DNA of 64,000 nt. Source: Candidatus Omnitrophota bacterium. GTDB lineage: Bacteria; Omnitrophota; Gorgyraeia; Zapsychrales; JANLHA01. The notes under the pieces are model-generated. The model worked only from the letters and a program-made list of their open reading frames with translations, was not told the origin of the DNA and made no database searches. Shown in pieces: positions 44,404 through 53,088 of this stretch (position 1 is its first letter; the number at the start of each line of letters is the position of its first letter). Position numbers and translations under genes: made by a program. The DNA lies in the NCBI GenBank assembly GCA_022711395.1, contig JAKLFA010000003.1, positions 162,509 through 226,508 of the forward strand, given 5' to 3'.

Positions 44404-44901
44404 TTACTGGGATAATCCCTGAAGAAGCACCAGAGCGCGCCGAAAATTCTCTTCATTCCGCTCTTTTTGGAAGATCAAAAGGCTTTTTTCCGCGTTCTGA
44501 ACAGCCTGTTCTTTCTTGCCCTGCAGTCCATTGGCAATGGCCAGAAGGTAATAGACCTCACCCTGGTCCGGCGCCACCCTCAAGGCCGCGCTATATGTCT
44601 GTGCTGCGTTATCAAAATCATTCAAATGCATATAGGTCTGGCCAAGGATCAAATAGGCCTGCAAATCCTGCGGGTCGCTCTGGATCGCCATTAATAAGCT
44701 TTTTACCGCTTCGGGGGCATTGGCCTCCTGCAAGTATTTGACCCCTTGGGCAAGGTATTCCTGATTGCCCGAAGCCTGTCCTGACGGTGTTACTGCTTGC
44801 TGTTGAAGAGCCTGCGATGGGGGAAGTTGAGGTTGGGGTTTTTGGTTCTGGCATCCCGTCAGCACAAAAACAACTGCGATCCCTAAAATAAACCTTCTCA
44901 T
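44404..44901 (-). CDS. TPR-repeat lipoprotein (165 aa). It lies immediately downstream of the giant gene.
   Basis: Signal peptide with lipobox (VLTGC), a Gln/Pro-rich linker and three TPR-like helical repeats. Confidence 0.7.
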   Translation of the reverse strand: MRRFILGIAVVFVLTGCQNQKPQPQLPPSQALQQQAVTPSGQASGNQEYLAQGVKYLQEANAPEAVKSLLMAIQSDPQDLQAYLILGQTYMHLNDFDNAAQTYSAALRVAPDQGEVYYLLAIANGLQGKKEQAVQNAEKSLLIFQKERNEENFRRALVLLQGLSQ

Positions 44902-45057: not shown

Positions 45058-48000
45058 TTACGGCGTCTGGCCCAGAAAATGCATGACATTGGCGTGAGGA
45101 AGAACATTGACCACAACTGGTGAGAGCCCGGTCAGCTCTTCTTTCAAGAGCAGCTCCGGCGCATCAAGCGATTCTGTCCAGCGCCGCCATAATTGATCGG
45201 TCACTGCGGAAGTTTCAACATCGATATCCGTAAGATCGATACCACCTGTCGGCGCCCCTTCGCCTGGCAAGACGGCGGAGTTCGTCCCCCTTTCCCCTGT
45301 CCTCCTTCCCCCTTCTGTTTTTTTCGCCTGCTCCGCCAGCGACTGGGCAGCGATCTGCCTCATAAAAAATTTAAATCTTTTTCCATGCGTAAAAATACTT
45401 TCTTCTTTTTCGGAAATAAAGAACACTCCACTCAAATTCTTCAGCCCTCCAGAATCGACCAAATGCTCAAGAAAATGCGCAGCCTCATGAACGACCGTCT
45501 CCGTTGCCTGATGCCGGCCGCTTAAACTTGCTATCCCTTCAGCCAGTGTGTCAGCGTTAAGGTACATGGTCACTTCGCCGGCCATATTAATAGAAAACAG
45601 CCCGCTAAAAGGAAGCCGTTTCCCGCGACCGGAGACGATCTTGACGTCCTGAAGCCCCAAAGGCCCCGCCACCTCCCGCCCGATCCGCAAAAGAGCCTTC
45701 AACGGTTCCGTGCCCGGATCGATCACATGATCTTCAGGGTTAATGCTCTGGCTTTCTTCCATGTCCGCCGCGACCTGGGCCCTTTTTTGAGCATGAGGGT
45801 CATGGGAACGCAGCGATCGTTCATAATCACGTCCTGTTTTTTGAGCGGCCAGACGTGCGCGCCGTTCATCGATCTTGGCCTGGGTCTTGATCCGCCTTTG
45901 CAAATAGCTGTTCACCTGCGGCCGGCCCTGTTCATCCGGAACAAACGCTTCGATCAGGACAAGGACGCGGGTCAGGACATCATCCGTTCGGTCGCAAAGG
46001 TCCCTCATGGATTCCAATCGATCATAATCGAAAGAATCCGCCGCGGCCCCCTTAAAAAGCTCCTGATTGATCTGCCCGATCACATCAAACATGTGGATAT
46101 TCCCGTCCAGCATAAGCCCAGGATTGTTTTGCGGTTCAACCGAGTTCCAATAATGCTCCGCCGGATTGACCTCCCAGTCCCTGGGAACCTCATCTAGCGT
46201 GAATGTTGTCTCCTTGCTTAATCCCCTGGAGACAAGAGCGCGATAGAAAGCGACCGCGACACTCTTTTGGATCTCCGGCAGGACCACATCCTCCTCCATG
46301 AACGAACTGCGGTTCTGGATCAGGCGTAACGGCGCATCAATTTGAATGACCAGCCCGATCTGTTTGGCATACCGCCGCAATTTTTGCGGGACCAGATCAA
46401 GAAAATGTTCTTTTTCTTTCAAGCTGTCGATCCGCAAACCCCGGCGGTCAACGACCTGCATCGGCATATCAGGATCCGCCGTGGCCCATACACGGACAGA
46501 ACCCTCCACGGTCCTTCCTTCGTCAAGAGATCGCACGCGCAATCCCGCTGAGGCCAGAGCCTCTTTTCCTCTGACCGCCAAAACGTCCGCGTCCTGAAGC
46601 GTTCCATCCTCTGCTGCCGGCTTCAAGAACCGGATGTTGAATTCCCCTCCTGCGGACATCCCGGCGTGCATCTTCCAGGCCCTGCGGGCGATCATCTGCT
46701 CAAGTTCCGGCAAACTTTTTCCGGGAGCGCGCATCCGCCGAATCCCAACACCTTTTTTAACAGACGAAGACGGGATCTTGGTGATCTCCACCAGCACGAG
46801 CTTGCGCCGTTCATAATCCACTTCGACATCAAAAACAAAACTCTCAACCCCGTTGTTCATGATGATCTGGACCTGGTCCATGCCGGCATACATCGTGAAT
46901 TTTCCTGTTCCAAAAAATCCGACCACCTGAGAATCCTGCCCGGCCTCCGCCTTATTCGATTGAGGGATCAAAAGCGCCAGGGCCTTGCCCAACGGAGGCC
47001 CGGCCCCGTCATCCCAGATCTCTTCGACATACATCCCGCTGCGCTCATCCACATAATATTCGATCTCAAGGTTCCTGGCGCCGGCATCCGTGGAATTCTG
47101 AGCGATCTCAGCGGCATAGGCCCCCGCCTCCCTCTGGACCTCGACCAATTTAAAGATCTCCTCGGTCAACTTGGCGCTTCCTGTCTGGCGTGAGACCGCT
47201 TCGCTGTTCGCAATAATATCGTCGATCGTATAAAGATCTGTGTCCTGCTCGGCCCTCCTGGGCTTGGAGCGGTTATACATCGCCAACTGGTCCAGCGTCA
47301 CATCGATCGAATGGAACTCTCCCGGAAAGACCTCGATCTTCTTCTTCGCGATCGGCTCCGTGTCGCTGACAAGAAAAACAAAAAAATCATTTAGGATCCC
47401 CAGCGACCCCCTGTCCGCCTCAGGGTCGGTCAACGCACGGAACAATTCATCCTGTTCAAAACCTTCGAATGCCCGGCTCATTTCTTCAATGTAACGAGGA
47501 TATTGGAGCATTTTTTCAAGCTGTCCGGCAAATCTGGCAGGGTCCACCCCTTCCTCATTGACCAGCAACTGCAGTATTTGAACGACCTTGGAAACATGCT
47601 CCGCGCCGCTGCCCTGGATCTTTCCGATCAATGCCTGGACCGGGGCCATGGCTGATAACAACGGTTCGGTCCTCGGATACCATCCATAGGACAGAGCTAA
47701 AAAGAATTCTTCTGTTAGAACCGCTGAATTGACCTCATGATCAGCGCCGGCCAGCGCCATCAATCCGGCAAAGAAATTTCTATAAAGGTCTGCCCGCGCC
47801 TTTCTGCCCTCCTGTTCGAACCGTCCCTGGATCTTCTGCCATACAGTAGACCCGTCGGGAAGAACTCTGTCAAGGGCCTGCACAAAAGCCCCCATGCGTT
47901 CAGCCATTTTGGAAAAAGGCTCATAACCCAACTCCACCGGCTCTCCTCCTTCCGCACGGTCGATCTGCTTCTTAAGCTGTTCCTGGATCCTCCGGCTCTC

Positions 48001-51000
48001 CGATACATAAAGATGAAAAATTCCCGGCGCCATCTCTCTTTGAAGGCGATCCGGAACACGTTCCAAAAGCGGCCCATACACCGCCTGGGCCCGACCGATC
48101 CATTCAGCCCGATGAGCAGCGACAAGCCTATTCCATGCTTCCAGCGTCTTTCCCCCGATCCGGGGCCGGCTGACCGGGGCCCGCCCCAGAACAAAAAGCC
48201 TGGGATCGATAAGGCTCAACCGGTTCATCGCCGTGGCCGGACTTCCATGCTCCTGCTTCCACCTGAAATCGATCGAATCCTTTTCCCCGGAAGGCGGAAC
48301 AAGGGCGGGGGATTTAACGAACTCACTGAACGGGATCTGATACAAGAGCCCGTCCGGGGTCAGCAAAAGATGAACATCTCCGCTCGGTGAATATGTGCGC
48401 TGCTCATCAAGAAGGACGATCGTGAAATACGTTTCCTTGCCTATCGTATGCCTGACCGGCCCCACCAAAGACTTGACCGTGCCCGGAAAGATCTCCGCAG
48501 TCAAAAAATCCTCAAGATTTGCCTCCGCCGCCTGACCGGTCAGCGGATTAAAAAAGATCCTGGCGGCAACGCGGTCATCGATCGAATCGAACTTGACCGG
48601 GATCCGCGCCTGCCCGATGAATTCCAGCTCAAACTCTCCGGGGTCCGCGAGCTCATGGTCCTTCGATTCAGAAATGATCTGCCCATTTTCCCCCATCCGA
48701 AAGAACCTGTACATGCGTCCCTGATAGCCGTTTGAAAGAAGCGATACCGGCTGCATGGAATACTGAATGAACAATCCTCCTCCCAGATGGCGGATGTTTT
48801 CACTGACCGGGGCCGCGACCGTATCTGAAATCTTTTTAGGATTCAATATGAAATCCACGTCTCGAACGCTTCCGTTTTTTTTCTCGATCCCTTCAAAATA
48901 TCTTGGAACAGAAGAGTCGGAATACCCGGAAAAATCTCCCTGATAAATCAGCTTTCCTGTTAATTGATCATAAACGCTGAGCTGCCAATACAGGCCGGGG
49001 TCATCTTGCAGGACCTTGGCGCCGTTCTCGATATCAGAGGGAAGGGCCTCCTGGCTGGCAACAACAAAAACACGATCACCCTCCTTGGCTGTTCCCACAA
49101 GATAGCGTGGACGCCCGCTCATCATGGGCACATCTAAATTGGCGCGGTCTAACGGATCGCGTTTAACGCCAAACACATGGACCGCAATATTGGACCAGGA
49201 CTCTTCACCAATGTAATTCAGATATCCCGCTCCGTTACGCATCATGGAAATTCGTTCGCCTTGCCCGGCAGATTCTCTCATCTGTGTTTGGTCGATAGAA
49301 TGATTTTTACAATCATACGCCCAGACCGTGCCCTGAAACGACTCCCCCGGGATACTCGCATCGTTCACAATAAAGAAACCTGTTTCCGAATCAGGATGTT
49401 CTATCAGCTTCGTTTTCAGGCCATTGGTTTCGATCTTGTTTTTGACCGCTCCGGTTCTGATGTCGATCACGTCCCACGACTGCCTGTCCGAGCCAAAAGG
49501 CTCCCCTATATTTAAGATCGGCGCCATTCCGTCACGCACCACCAGCGTGTTGCCGAACAAATACCTCTCCGAACTAAACCTGTAATTGACAAAAAGGTCC
49601 AGCGGAAAAAATCTATGCGCCTTTTGCTGGTCAGGGTCCACGAATTCATCACGGCTAAAACTCCGGAAGACGATCTCATCCCGCGCGGACTCGACGACAA
49701 CGCCTTTCTCAAAAAAATACGCGTTCCGATGCCGGCCCAAATACTTTCCGGTCTTCTGCGGCCCCCCGGCCTCACTGGATATATAATTGATCATGTCCAC
49801 AAAACTCCCGAACGTCGATTCTTTCTGCCTTGCCAATTCCTTAAGAGAAGGGTTCCTGGCTTCCCCTGCCACGGGCCTGAAGATCTTCACCGAAGGCTCC
49901 TTCAAAAATCCCTCAATGGCCGCGGCATCCGGCCCGACGGGCTGAACATCAGACGGACCCGGCCCCTCCGATCCCCCGGTCTTTTTTTGAAGCCGGCTTC
50001 TCTGTCCTCCCATTTCATAACTTGTCGTCAAATCTTCTTCTTTAGTGATCTGGATGGACAAACGTTCCAGCAGAGATGCCAGACGGATCTGCTCATCATC
50101 AGAAAGCGCTCCGTCGCGTTCTCTTTTTTCTATCAAATCTAAAACCACATCCATCCACTGTTTAGGAACAAGGATCACCGTTCCTGTTTCGATCATCGGG
50201 ATCTGCGCGTCCTTAGCCCCAAGCTGCAATTGTTTCATGCTGTCTTCATTAAAATCAACGGCCATCAACGTCAGTTCGGTCTCGCGCCCGTTCACGCGCT
50301 GCGATACGGAAATGATGTCTTTGGAAACCGCCCTGGCCTGCAGACTTTTTAAGGCCGTTGCGCCGTCCTGCCAGTCAAACAGGAATTCATTCAAATACAC
50401 AGCCGTCACGCCTTGCGGCAAAGCCACCTGCGAGAACTGGACATCGTCCGGGAAGAACAAATATTTCGGATCGCCTGAAAGCTTTAAGACCACCCGCCCG
50501 ATCAGCTCTTTGACCCGGCCCCTCATCATCTGCAGCACCTGTTGATTGTGAGGGTTATCTCCCGCAAGTTCCTGAAGACCGTTAATTAAAGAGTTGATCA
50601 GCCGTAATTTATCGATATCCGTCATCCGGTCCTGCGTGATGCTGAGGATCTGCCTCACCACCTGTTCGATGCCGGCCGCCATCGCCTGCTGCCCGCTCTC
50701 TGAAGACGGAAAAATGATCTTGTCCCGCGCCTGCTGGACCTGCAACAACCGGCCCATTTCAAGCATCAGCCGTCCTTTAAAGATCCCCTGAGGATGGATG
50801 CCGGAAGGGACCTCGATCTCCTTAATGATCTCTCCGTTGCGAGAAAAGGCGACAACGCTGCGTTCCTCCGGCATGTCCTCATGCGCCAAAGCAAGATAAT
50901 CGAGCTCATTCTGAATATGCTCCGCCGTCAGCTGCGAGGCCGCCTGTTTGTCCCCGCCTTCCGCCGGAATGAACATGCGTGATAGCGTCGCGACGTTCAT

Positions 51001-53088
51001 GCCCTTGCCGTTGTCCACGATCCTGATCGAATGGGCGTCCAGCCCGACCCGGATATGGCGCCCTCCGAATGCGTCGCGTTCATCGCCGAAACCGAAGATC
51101 AGCCTGCGGCGGTCCCAGCCGTTGACATGGTCCTTTAGCCCATTCAATTCCAGGTCAATGCGCACATCCCTGACGAACCTGAAGCGGTCCTTGATGGACC
51201 CTGCGATCTGCTCCAGGACGCTGGACCCGTCCGGCGTTTTTTCAGCGGACAGGTCTCGCGCAGCCGAAACCTCCACCACGGTCCCCTGCTCCGCGCTTTC
51301 ACCGGCCTTTGAAAAAAACTCCTGCTCCGTCATCGCAGAGACCTGCACATACCACTGCCCATGGTCGTCACGGACGATCTGAAGATGGTTTGCCGTGCCG
51401 TCCGATGTCTTCGAATACACATCAATACGGTCTCTGCCGCTTTTATCAAGCCAGCTTAAGATCTGCTTAACGCCTTTGCCGAACTGTCCGATCCAGTGAT
51501 CCGAGCTTGCGCGCAACGCGTCGATACTGTTGGCGACCGCCTCCAGGACGCTCTGCGACTTGGCGTTCGCGTTTTGCCCCAGGACCGTCACGTTCAAACG
51601 GGGGTCTTTATAAGCATAACCACCGTCCGATCTGTTGATAAGGTCTACCGTTTCGGCTGAATATCCCCGCCGGGTCAACTCAAGAAGAATGCCGTTATAA
51701 TAAGCGGTCCGGGACCCTGCGGAGAACACATCATCCTCCTCCATGATCCCCAAATGCCGAAGCACGGCCTCAAGCCGCTCGTCATCCAGTTCCCGGTTCG
51801 CCAGGCGCTGCTGCGCGACCAAAAAATGTTCCAGGTCCACGCCTTGAAAAATACCGTCGCTCGATCTGTATTCCGTCGCCTGCAGCCGGGACTTGACCGC
51901 CCTGGCCAGAATATCCTCATCCCCCGCGATCCCAGTGCCCGTCGATGTCCCATCACGATAAAAACGGTAATGCCCGCTCAAAATGGCCGAGTTTCCTTCA
52001 AAACGGATATCGGCAGAAGCCGCCGGAACCTCTTCAATGGCCGGCTTCAAGTTTGTGCTGGAAAACCCGATCCCTCCGGAAAAATATTTTCGCGGAATGA
52101 TCTGCTGACTTAACGGGTCCTCTTCTTCCCGTATATAGTTGTAGACCCCTTTTTTAAATGACGCGACATACTGCTCGTAGATCCTTTGAGAGGCCTCTGG
52201 CTCATCATGCTCAACGCCACGCAGCTTGCCCTTGCTGCCGTAAACGCGCATCAGCATGCTTTCCCGAAGGGTATTCCGGTACCACGTCGCGAGGATCAGC
52301 GCGTAATAGATCTGCCGCAGGCGGGAAAAACTTTTTCCCGCGTTGACTTCCTGCTCAATCGCGGGAAGGATGATCTGCCGGTAAACTTCCTCCGCCTCCG
52401 CCGATATCGGATTTTTTTCCTCAACGCCGTTACTGGTCATGGCCAAATAATCCTTTTCGAGCATGACCTTGAGCCTGGCCTTGCTGATCACGGCTGTCTG
52501 CCCATGGACGGCGACCTGGGCCTTGTCCGGCATGATCCAGACCTTGTGGAAGGTTTCCAAAGGCGCGTCAGATTTTCCGAACTTTTTGGCGATCTGCGAC
52601 CGGACCGTTGACCAGAACTCCTGGCCCAGTTCTTTTTCAGGATATAGCAGCGAAGCGGAAAGCTGTTTCAAAAGATAGTCCTGCGCCAGAAGGTCCCGGC
52701 CCATTTCTGTCTGCCCAAAATCCGGCGCGATGATCCGGTGTTCCTCATAAGGAGACAGGTTGACCCAAAAATCCTCTTCCGGGATCGCCAATCCTGTCAG
52801 GAAAAAACGGATCAACGCCTCCCCTTCTTCTTTCAGTGCCTCCTGAGAAATGTCCTGACTGCCGGTGTCCACAATAAAATTAAATTCAAACGGCTTTTCG
52901 ATATCAAACTGCAGACCCTTTAAAAGTACCGGACTAAACGGCTGGCTGAATGAGACCATTTCCCCGATGACCGGCAAAGCCGGCATAGGTTGGGCCCAAG
53001 AACAGGTAGGATAGATCGAATAAAATACAAAATTTGCCAAAAATAAGCAAAAAAATGATTTTTTTATATACTTTTTTGTGTCGGCCAT
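45058..53088 (-). CDS. Giant 2676-aa exported protein with an N-terminal Sec signal peptide. It carries an N-box/G1/G2 motif set typical of the GHKL/Bergerat ATP-binding fold (aa about 1994-2065), a second degenerate GHKL-like motif set (aa about 515-700) and a C-terminal HExxH zincin-like motif (HEAAHFLEH, aa 2534-2542). Otherwise uncharacterised.
   Basis: Single uninterrupted 8031-nt ORF starting at the ATG at 53088. Signal peptide MADTKKYIKKSFFCLFLANFVFYSIYPTCSWA. Motifs read from the translation (listed under findings). Confidence 0.8.
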   Translation of the reverse strand: MADTKKYIKKSFFCLFLANFVFYSIYPTCSWAQPMPALPVIGEMVSFSQPFSPVLLKGLQFDIEKPFEFNFIVDTGSQDISQEALKEEGEALIRFFLTGLAIPEEDFWVNLSPYEEHRIIAPDFGQTEMGRDLLAQDYLLKQLSASLLYPEKELGQEFWSTVRSQIAKKFGKSDAPLETFHKVWIMPDKAQVAVHGQTAVISKARLKVMLEKDYLAMTSNGVEEKNPISAEAEEVYRQIILPAIEQEVNAGKSFSRLRQIYYALILATWYRNTLRESMLMRVYGSKGKLRGVEHDEPEASQRIYEQYVASFKKGVYNYIREEEDPLSQQIIPRKYFSGGIGFSSTNLKPAIEEVPAASADIRFEGNSAILSGHYRFYRDGTSTGTGIAGDEDILARAVKSRLQATEYRSSDGIFQGVDLEHFLVAQQRLANRELDDERLEAVLRHLGIMEEDDVFSAGSRTAYYNGILLELTRRGYSAETVDLINRSDGGYAYKDPRLNVTVLGQNANAKSQSVLEAVANSIDALRASSDHWIGQFGKGVKQILSWLDKSGRDRIDVYSKTSDGTANHLQIVRDDHGQWYVQVSAMTEQEFFSKAGESAEQGTVVEVSAARDLSAEKTPDGSSVLEQIAGSIKDRFRFVRDVRIDLELNGLKDHVNGWDRRRLIFGFGDERDAFGGRHIRVGLDAHSIRIVDNGKGMNVATLSRMFIPAEGGDKQAASQLTAEHIQNELDYLALAHEDMPEERSVVAFSRNGEIIKEIEVPSGIHPQGIFKGRLMLEMGRLLQVQQARDKIIFPSSESGQQAMAAGIEQVVRQILSITQDRMTDIDKLRLINSLINGLQELAGDNPHNQQVLQMMRGRVKELIGRVVLKLSGDPKYLFFPDDVQFSQVALPQGVTAVYLNEFLFDWQDGATALKSLQARAVSKDIISVSQRVNGRETELTLMAVDFNEDSMKQLQLGAKDAQIPMIETGTVILVPKQWMDVVLDLIEKRERDGALSDDEQIRLASLLERLSIQITKEEDLTTSYEMGGQRSRLQKKTGGSEGPGPSDVQPVGPDAAAIEGFLKEPSVKIFRPVAGEARNPSLKELARQKESTFGSFVDMINYISSEAGGPQKTGKYLGRHRNAYFFEKGVVVESARDEIVFRSFSRDEFVDPDQQKAHRFFPLDLFVNYRFSSERYLFGNTLVVRDGMAPILNIGEPFGSDRQSWDVIDIRTGAVKNKIETNGLKTKLIEHPDSETGFFIVNDASIPGESFQGTVWAYDCKNHSIDQTQMRESAGQGERISMMRNGAGYLNYIGEESWSNIAVHVFGVKRDPLDRANLDVPMMSGRPRYLVGTAKEGDRVFVVASQEALPSDIENGAKVLQDDPGLYWQLSVYDQLTGKLIYQGDFSGYSDSSVPRYFEGIEKKNGSVRDVDFILNPKKISDTVAAPVSENIRHLGGGLFIQYSMQPVSLLSNGYQGRMYRFFRMGENGQIISESKDHELADPGEFELEFIGQARIPVKFDSIDDRVAARIFFNPLTGQAAEANLEDFLTAEIFPGTVKSLVGPVRHTIGKETYFTIVLLDEQRTYSPSGDVHLLLTPDGLLYQIPFSEFVKSPALVPPSGEKDSIDFRWKQEHGSPATAMNRLSLIDPRLFVLGRAPVSRPRIGGKTLEAWNRLVAAHRAEWIGRAQAVYGPLLERVPDRLQREMAPGIFHLYVSESRRIQEQLKKQIDRAEGGEPVELGYEPFSKMAERMGAFVQALDRVLPDGSTVWQKIQGRFEQEGRKARADLYRNFFAGLMALAGADHEVNSAVLTEEFFLALSYGWYPRTEPLLSAMAPVQALIGKIQGSGAEHVSKVVQILQLLVNEEGVDPARFAGQLEKMLQYPRYIEEMSRAFEGFEQDELFRALTDPEADRGSLGILNDFFVFLVSDTEPIAKKKIEVFPGEFHSIDVTLDQLAMYNRSKPRRAEQDTDLYTIDDIIANSEAVSRQTGSAKLTEEIFKLVEVQREAGAYAAEIAQNSTDAGARNLEIEYYVDERSGMYVEEIWDDGAGPPLGKALALLIPQSNKAEAGQDSQVVGFFGTGKFTMYAGMDQVQIIMNNGVESFVFDVEVDYERRKLVLVEITKIPSSSVKKGVGIRRMRAPGKSLPELEQMIARRAWKMHAGMSAGGEFNIRFLKPAAEDGTLQDADVLAVRGKEALASAGLRVRSLDEGRTVEGSVRVWATADPDMPMQVVDRRGLRIDSLKEKEHFLDLVPQKLRRYAKQIGLVIQIDAPLRLIQNRSSFMEEDVVLPEIQKSVAVAFYRALVSRGLSKETTFTLDEVPRDWEVNPAEHYWNSVEPQNNPGLMLDGNIHMFDVIGQINQELFKGAAADSFDYDRLESMRDLCDRTDDVLTRVLVLIEAFVPDEQGRPQVNSYLQRRIKTQAKIDERRARLAAQKTGRDYERSLRSHDPHAQKRAQVAADMEESQSINPEDHVIDPGTEPLKALLRIGREVAGPLGLQDVKIVSGRGKRLPFSGLFSINMAGEVTMYLNADTLAEGIASLSGRHQATETVVHEAAHFLEHLVDSGGLKNLSGVFFISEKEESIFTHGKRFKFFMRQIAAQSLAEQAKKTEGGRRTGERGTNSAVLPGEGAPTGGIDLTDIDVETSAVTDQLWRRWTESLDAPELLLKEELTGLSPVVVNVLPHANVMHFLGQTP

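Follow-up and report, generated by a model that had tools for sequence, protein, structure and literature searches.

A candidate zincin-type metalloprotease domain at the end of an Hsp90-like unit in a signal-peptide-bearing giant protein of Candidatus Omnitrophota

SPRTN, Wss1, BlaR1, CapP/IrrE and HtpX are regulated, substrate-selective proteases, and several of them cleave themselves. The canonical layout of a minimal zincin consists of a backing helix, a sheet, an active-site helix and a ligand-bearing helix. The HExxH motif is short, and many chance occurrences can be found in any proteome. The Omnitrophota are suspected of a predatory or parasitic life. Here we describe a zincin-like domain near the C-terminus of a giant protein encoded in a 64,000-nucleotide stretch of DNA (the window) from a Candidatus Omnitrophota bacterium (GenBank assembly GCA_022711395.1, contig JAKLFA010000003.1, positions 162,509 to 226,508 of the forward strand). 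The giant open reading frame, the domain and its key residues (aa, amino acid positions of the protein) are located in the window as follows.

45058..53088, minus strand: giant open reading frame, 2676 aa plus stop
45286..45759, minus strand: zincin-like domain, aa 2444-2601, seen in alignment A1, in the AlphaFold2 model, in Foldseek matches from the PDB and BFVD and in 97 sequence clusters
45475..45489, minus strand: HEAAH, aa 2534-2538, two candidate zinc ligands and a candidate catalytic Glu, invariant in A1
45466..45468, minus strand: E2541, conserved as Glu or Gln
45463..45465, minus strand: H2542, the His of FLEH, variable
45385..45387, minus strand: H2568 in FTHG (family motif (S/T)-H-(D/Q)-x-x-x-F), invariant in A1 along with F2572

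A first-pass annotation, made from the sequence of the window alone, had pointed to an HEAAH motif at aa 2534-2538 of the giant protein. Translation confirmed its presence, as window positions 45463-45489 of the minus strand encode HEAAHFLEH (aa 2534-2542). It is the only HExxH in the 2676 aa. The composition of the protein (46 His, 214 Glu) leads one to expect 0.063 chance occurrences, which corresponds to about 6% of such proteins. Taken alone, the motif is weak evidence, suggestive and not significant. We judge it to be more than a chance occurrence because it is conserved across a family of related domains.

A word-indexed homologue search with aa 2400-2676 returned nothing beyond one fragment of 169 aa, which is 75% identical and retains HEAAHFLEH. 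The relatives of the zincin-like domain were reached by a search with the whole protein and by an exhaustive profile search. The whole-protein search gave 1,962 proteins, and all of those that are named belong to Candidatus Omnitrophota/Omnitrophica. In most of them the similarity is confined to the first ~340 aa (45-51% identity), and the enzyme domains that follow differ widely. Two long stretches, aa ~10-1070 and aa ~1650-2670, are shared (25-37% identity) by about 20 relatives (P0003-P0022), and the HExxH is found at the aligned position in all of these except P0018, which is truncated C-terminally. We aligned the domain from 20 paralogues and orthologues (alignment A1, 158 columns corresponding to aa 2444-2601), which are 19-31% identical to the copy in the window. 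Only six of the 158 columns are invariant, namely G2496, H2534, E2535, H2538, H2568 and F2572.

Furthermore, a HMMER profile of the domain was searched exhaustively against 1.84 billion representative proteins (E<=1e-3), yielding 97 clusters. The first-pass annotation had proposed conservation of the motif in homologues as a check, and this was borne out: H-E-x-x-H...H is kept in 95 of the 97 domain instances that cover both motifs. Per residue, counting aligned non-gap instances, H2534 and E2535 are each conserved in 100 of 102 and H2538 in 101 of 102, while H2568, which lies 30 residues past H2538, is His in 98 of 100. The family signature can be written as T-x-T-h-h-H-E-L-x-H-h-h-E ... (S/T)-H-(D/Q)-x-x-x-F. 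H2568 is thereby the likely third zinc ligand, as judged from the alignment and the predicted model. The first-pass annotation had singled out the FLEH that follows HEAAH as the source of a further Glu and His. The Glu stands, since the E2541 column (HExxHxxE) holds Glu in 89, Gln in 10 and other residues in three of 102 aligned non-gap instances, and E2541 is probably a second-shell residue. The His does not: the H2542 column is variable (E22/A13/H8/R8/D8/K7 and others) and is not a family ligand, the conserved third His being H2568.

In the two exceptions, P0178 (aa 50-209; YF..H..N) and P0197 (aa 3365-3522; EH..Y..N), several of the four residues were lost at once, and from their sequences both are probably inactivated pseudo-enzyme copies of the domain. 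The named members of the further clusters are again Omnitrophota, save P0185, a 'tape measure domain-containing protein' of 6835 aa. We rejected P0185 as a family member, as the profile matched its HExxH helix only. This protein carries six repeated zincin-like helices of the form hhHELTHxxQ between aa 2288 and 4223, and it appears from this to be a different, repeat-type zincin protein.

AlphaFold2 applied to A1 gave a model with a mean predicted local distance difference test (pLDDT) score of 86.6 and a predicted template modelling (pTM) score of 0.81. In A1 numbering, the model consists of a helix (18-34), three strands (38-42, 53-57 and 63-68), a helix (79-103) that carries the HExxH at 91-95, and a C-terminal helix (127-155) that begins two residues past H2568. 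The loop between the HExxH helix and H2568 is variable in length and was predicted with less confidence. The invariant HExxH is placed on a helix that follows a mixed sheet, with a backing helix before it, and the candidate third ligand H2568 lies, by alignment and model, just ahead of the next helix. A helical bundle devoid of a third ligand, the outcome that would have spoken against a zincin, is not what was predicted: the model has a sheet and an active-site helix, and the third His is conserved.

The best Foldseek match in the PDB was the protease domain of SPRTN (6mdw; E 2.2e-3, probability 0.99). Further PDB matches were CapP, the BlaR1 protease domain, HtpX, Ste24 and Wss1, with template modelling (TM) scores of only 0.34-0.40. 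Against BFVD, the majority of the top 20 matches were SprT-like/XE, M48 or IrrE-like, with probabilities of up to 1.0. The predicted fold is that of a minimal zincin, nearest to the SprT/M48/IrrE group. The statement in the first-pass annotation that no peptidase-family context is recognisable around the motif holds for the sequence, where no curated threshold is reached, and fails for the fold, where SPRTN/SprT-like, M48 and IrrE-type matches were obtained.

At the level of sequence, the best Pfam match of the window copy was SprT-like (PF10263), whose threshold of 25.6 bits was missed by the whole protein (13.7 bits) and by the domain alone (19.9 bits, E 7e-4). We count the latter E-value for the zincin reading, though it is sub-threshold. 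The weak, sub-threshold Pfam matches among the 20 members scatter over SprT-like, Reprolysin_4, DUF6055, M91, M10, M50B and ATLF. The domain does not carry the metzincin signature HExxHxxGxxH with its Met-turn: the position +3 from the second His is Glu or Gln instead of Gly, no His at +6 is conserved in the 20 relatives, and the sole nearby His, H2542 at +4, is the variable one. Nor does A1 contain an invariant Glu downstream that could serve as a gluzincin ligand 18 or more residues past the HExxH, as only H2568 and F2572 are invariant there. Between aa 2590 and 2676 no Cys and no further His cluster is apparent that would indicate a C-terminal Zn-ribbon or Zn-binding subdomain. Sequence searches of the PDB gave nothing significant. 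S100B entries matched at E 0.03 through a helix aligned without the His residues and were discarded as spurious, and 3e11, a 'predicted zincin-like metalloprotease', reached only E 0.19. The domain is in no curated family; by sequence it appears to be a new zincin family, of known fold and chemistry.

Upstream of the zincin-like domain, the protein contains two regions that together with it form an Hsp90-like unit.

46699..47211, minus strand: GHKL (Hsp90/sacsin-type) ATPase domain, aa 1960-2130, recognised from Pfam and NCBIfam comparisons, invariant columns and hhalign
45760..46698, minus strand: beta-rich middle domain and helical domain, aa 2131-2443, which connect the ATPase with the zincin

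In an alignment of 18 sequences over aa 1960-2595 (A2), the Bergerat-fold residues E1994, N1998, D2001, D2026, G2030, G2057, G2060 and G2062 are invariant, so that the motifs ExxxNxxD, DxGxG and GxxGxG are all present in the GHKL domain. Comparison with Escherichia coli HtpG by hhalign gave a probability of 87% and an E-value of 4e-6 across these motifs. Curated models stayed below their cutoffs, with Pfam HATPase_c_3 at 24.7 bits (just under the cutoff of 25) and the NCBIfam sacsin ATP-binding model (NF047352) at 24.2 bits (E 3.5e-5; cutoff 50). More than 50 representative clusters show one and the same order of GHKL domain, ~300-aa middle region and zincin. This order holds for terminal as well as internal cassettes in proteins of 1-7.7 kaa; for instance, the domain is located at aa 1944-2093 of 4247 in P0126 and at aa 4365-4505 of 7727 in P0140. 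The zincin-like domain always adjoins the Hsp90-like unit and not the C-terminal tail of the protein.

AlphaFold2 predicted aa 1960-2595 (636 aa) as one body (pLDDT 82.6, pTM 0.80). Foldseek aligned this model with full-length Hsc82, HSP90B, HtpG, TRAP1 and GRP94 over 700+ columns (E 1.6e-11 to 1e-9), in the Hsp90-like order of N-domain, middle domain and C-terminal domain. The TM-score is only ~0.33, since the domain orientations differ. In this model the zincin takes the place of the Hsp90 C-terminal domain, a position that may reflect either descent or merely similar topology.

The whole protein is preceded by a signal peptide, and its two ends are shared with many other proteins.

52993..53088, minus strand: Sec-type signal peptide, aa 1-32 (MADTKKYIKK, hydrophobic core, CSWA|Q), read from the sequence
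52054..52992, minus strand: N-terminal domain of unknown function, aa 33-345, common to ~1,960 Omnitrophota proteins, no Pfam match
45070..45255, minus strand: shared C-terminal tail, aa 2612-2673 (GGIDL...hxGhxPVhhNhxPhxNhxxFLG), also in zincin-less paralogues, no Pfam match

In the signal peptide, a basic n-region precedes the hydrophobic core, and a site of the AxA|Q type follows, which reads SWA|Q and lies after aa 32. Twenty-one homologues have the same layout, which shows that the signal peptide noted earlier is real and conserved. No other hydrophobic 19-mer of the giant protein exceeds a Kyte-Doolittle value of 1.6. In the Joint Genome Institute (JGI) gene call, the identical protein (P0002, 2642 aa) begins at M35, so that the stretch with the signal peptide (52987-53088, minus strand) is left out. 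We prefer the longer start because homologues align from aa 5-14. As read from its sequence, the giant protein is exported via a Sec signal peptide. The earlier suggestion of a zincin-like metal-site domain that closes the GHKL-containing part of a giant protein with a signal peptide is supported by conservation, by the AlphaFold2 model and by Foldseek.

We propose, with a probability of roughly 60%, that the domain at aa 2444-2601 is a minimal zincin capable of catalysis, built into an Hsp90-like unit, and that it performs gated, limited proteolysis after export. One Zn2+ would be coordinated by H2534, H2538 and H2568, with E2535 as the general base that activates the water molecule, and E2541 would help to position the site. 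The zincin is the last domain of a compact unit (GHKL ATPase, middle, helical, zincin) that may bind or clamp a polypeptide chain, which could be a client or a different segment of the giant itself. Access to the site would be controlled by the flexible loop that connects the HExxH helix with H2568 and could act as a lid. Proteolysis would be limited and placed under the control of the rigidly joined Hsp90-like unit. Since the Sec signal peptide sits on the whole protein, the target would lie outside the cytoplasm of the producer. In a bolder version, the protein would be a GHKL-driven chaperone-protease, in which the Hsp90 C-terminal domain has been replaced by, or has evolved into, a zincin, and in which nucleotide-dependent clamping feeds or gates proteolysis; exported by Omnitrophota, it would perhaps work in or on prey cells, where ATP is present. 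We regard this version as tentative and rather unlikely.

Several observations weigh against a proteolytic zincin acting under an Hsp90-like ATPase. The Foldseek TM-scores of the domain are low (0.34-0.47 overall), and the zincin-only model also matches middle-to-C-terminal fragments of Hsp90s (TRAP1, MC-Hsp90) at E 0.02-0.06 and TM ~0.35-0.40, so that, for these models, structure search alone cannot separate 'zincin' from 'Hsp90-segment-like'. Pfam SprT-like is matched by only 2 of the 20 members (E<=1), no zincin model was matched when the family consensus was compared with Pfam and NCBIfam, and no curated peptidase model of either database reaches its threshold. A comparison of A1 with E. 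coli YggI/SprT by hhalign covered 13 motif columns only at a probability of 37%, the single-sequence template making this a weak test. Finally, an ATPase that is apparently active, as indicated by its invariant Bergerat motifs, would be exported, without another transmembrane segment, to a place that has no obvious ATP supply.

Four other explanations were considered. The domain could be a dedicated autoprocessing protease whose sole substrate is its own giant precursor, cut for example in the low-complexity linker that precedes the GGIDL tail or between cassettes. It is well placed for this, being located 11 residues ahead of a Gly/Ala-rich linker and the shared C-terminal tail, and BlaR1, SPRTN and Wss1, all among its structural matches, are established to autocleave. 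However, ~1,940 proteins with the same N-domain lack the zincin, and those inspected also have the same C-tail, which indicates that maturation of the tail or of the two ends is independent of it. Because zincin-less paralogues share both ends, we consider the zincin to be part of a cargo cassette and not a general maturation device for the tail. Moreover, the domain is internal in many relatives, including P0126 and P0140, where it stands beside the Hsp90-like unit and not beside the tail. Self-cleavage as the only role is therefore unlikely.

We think it similarly improbable that the domain is non-proteolytic, an equivalent of the Hsp90 C-terminal domain that serves metal binding or dimerisation, with a structural zinc or none and an HExxH that is not catalytic. 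This would fit the end-to-end alignment of the full unit with Hsp90, the matches to TRAP1 and MC-Hsp90 fragments at TM-scores like that of SPRTN, and the failure to reach any peptidase family threshold. A structural site, on the other hand, needs no Glu, yet E2535 is as strictly kept as the His residues (100 of the 102 aligned non-gap instances), and the motif is found exactly at the zincin positions of the topology. In P0178 and P0197 its residues were lost together, as would be the case for a catalytic unit, and the BFVD matches are overwhelmingly peptidases.

A third possibility is a secreted effector or degradative protease that works independently of the ATPase on surface or cytoplasmic proteins of a prey or host, the Hsp90-like part being a scaffold only. 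The conserved signal peptide is in line with this. Zincin domains are common in delivered toxins (PMC3417536), and giant proteins of Omnitrophota have been proposed to act on prey cells (bioRxiv 10.1101/2023.11.21.568195). The strict, fixed-order linkage to the GHKL domain and the invariant ATP-binding residues instead suggest that the two parts work together, and no secretion-system or immunity genes recur beside the homologues (neighbourhoods of the window, P0012 and P0005), which makes an independent effector very doubtful. Last, a chance HExxH in an ordinary helical region, as the shortness of the motif and the 0.063 expected copies might suggest, is refuted by the invariance at 19-31% identity, the conserved third His and the zincin-like fold.

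In our literature search we found no paper that links GHKL or Hsp90-like proteins with zincin or SprT, or Omnitrophota with SprT. What is new here is the sequence family and the architecture in which it occurs, with a zincin as the last domain of an Hsp90-like unit, whereas the fold and the chemistry are known. The domain would add to the peptidase catalogue a sequence-novel zincin family that Pfam and NCBIfam do not yet recognise. Within the literature searched, this would be the first zincin hard-wired to an Hsp90-type ATPase, and the arrangement can serve as a testable model of how ATP or conformation might gate proteolysis on a GHKL scaffold. If the chaperone-protease version is true, the protein would be the Hsp90-fold counterpart of AAA+ proteases such as FtsH. 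In addition, the domain provides a concrete enzymatic handle on the exported multi-domain giants of Omnitrophota, which are functionally opaque.

The remainder of the giant protein consists of the following regions.

47209..48141, minus strand: conserved region B1, aa 1650-1960, preceding the ATPase
48229..49791, minus strand: variable middle, aa ~1100-1620, no detectable homologue except the identical JGI copy
49879..51891, minus strand: conserved region A, aa 400-1070, specific to this subfamily, with a weak GHKL-like G1 box (IRIVDNGKGM)

Region A is always found upstream of the GHKL-zincin cassette. It contains the motifs EAVANSIDA (E-x-x-x-N-x-x-D-like), GQFGKG and DNGKGM in an unusual order, and from its sequence it may be a second, divergent GHKL unit. 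Pfam HATPase_c matched it at E=0.086, and hhalign against HtpG gave a probability of only 14%. Internal duplication of region A and the GHKL-zincin unit was not established, as a comparison of their profiles gave a misregistered match with a probability of 22%. At the position of the variable middle, P0012 shows faint Pfam matches to WD40 beta-propellers.

The signal peptide together with the ~310-aa N-terminal domain (52054-53088, minus strand) occurs in ~1,960 Omnitrophota proteins, the N-domain matches having 45-51% identity over 12-13% of the query, and those inspected also carry the ~65-aa tail (GGIDL...PVIINI.P...LLG). Between these bookends, the paralogues contain unrelated, 'cytoplasmic' enzymes: TIM, PGK, GAPDH, enolase, PPDK, phosphoglucomutase, methyltransferases, kinases, M48+ABC1, response regulators and GGDEF. 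The puzzle of ATP supply extends to their kinase and glycolytic cargos, unless the site of action is in or on another cell. Within each of the pairs P0005/P0044, P0037/P0061 and P0024/P0098, the longest contigs have identical lengths, a hint that a single genome might contain more than one bookend protein. Neither bookend matches Pfam, and no description of them was found in the literature searched. A C-terminal sorting domain of the type IX secretion system, considered for the tail after a PF18962 flag on P0118, was rejected, as neither tail matches Pfam.

The neighbours of the giant gene in the window are housekeeping genes (carAB, gltBD, nadE, pyrG, a purF-like gene) and a gene for a TPR protein. 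No conserved operon partner was found, the neighbourhoods of P0012 and P0005 being different from that of the window. Two further features are listed here.

44404-44901, minus strand: 165-aa TPR protein directly downstream of the giant open reading frame, not conserved beside P0012 and P0005
23797-30979, minus strand: two-partner secretion pair, ~15 kb from the giant open reading frame

The pair consists of a TpsA-like exoprotein of 1868 aa (Pfam TPS domain, E 4e-35), which has a C-type-lectin-like 'WSSGEPNN' segment, and an overlapping gene for its partner, a 572-aa TpsB of the ShlB/FhaC type (POTRA_2 and ShlB).

Among described systems, the long proteins of Omnitrophota, the 'Archaeovorins' (bioRxiv 10.1101/2023.11.21.568195; 10.64898/2026.06.07.730766), come from the same phylum. 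According to these preprints, they too are very long, signal-peptide-bearing proteins that string together cytoplasmic-type enzyme domains, including HATPase_c. They differ in being far larger and in having many transmembrane helices, with genes of more than 90 kb given in the 2023 preprint and a largest protein of 147,155 aa in the 2026 preprint. Searched by term, neither preprint was seen to mention this zincin domain, its coupling to an Hsp90-like unit or the N-domain and GGIDL-tail bookends.

The M48/M56 and IrrE/ImmA/CapP groups (HtpX, Ste24, BlaR1, CapP) resemble the domain in their small zincin core, as seen among the structural matches, and in the limited proteolysis that an attached sensor or partner domain regulates, as is likewise proposed here. 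In contrast, M48/M56 enzymes use a downstream Glu and IrrE-type proteins have other arrangements; these proteins are membrane-embedded or fused to a helix-turn-helix domain, and no match to them exists at the sequence level. FtsH (AAA+ with an M41 HExxH peptidase) likewise has an ATPase N-terminal to a zincin peptidase in one polypeptide. This is a functional analogy only, as AAA+ and GHKL folds share no homology and FtsH faces the cytoplasm.

The likeness to Hsp90, HtpG and TRAP1 lies in the preceding 480 aa, which carry the Hsp90-type Bergerat motifs, and in the domain order, which aligns with full-length Hsp90; the weak NCBIfam sacsin ATP-binding match adds a likeness to the Hsp90-like repeats of sacsin. 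Unlike in Hsp90, the C-terminal position is occupied by an HExxH...H site, and the unit is embedded in an exported giant protein of several cassettes.

With the SprT-like/SPRTN/Wss1 proteins (PF10263, WLM family), the domain shares an HExxH helix that follows a three-stranded sheet, and a third-ligand His followed by an aromatic residue (H-x-x-x-F here, H-G-x-x-F in SprT-like). They provide the best structural match in the PDB (6mdw) and dominate the BFVD matches. In the Omnitrophota domain, 29 residues and a variable loop separate the second and third His, whereas in SPRTN, 14 residues reportedly lie between H115 and H130. The Omnitrophota domain also differs in having no Zn-ribbon or Zn-binding subdomain (no Cys past aa 2590) and an extra conserved Glu or Gln at +3 from the second His. 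Moreover, it is fused to an Hsp90-like unit, is predicted to be exported and shows no link to DNA.

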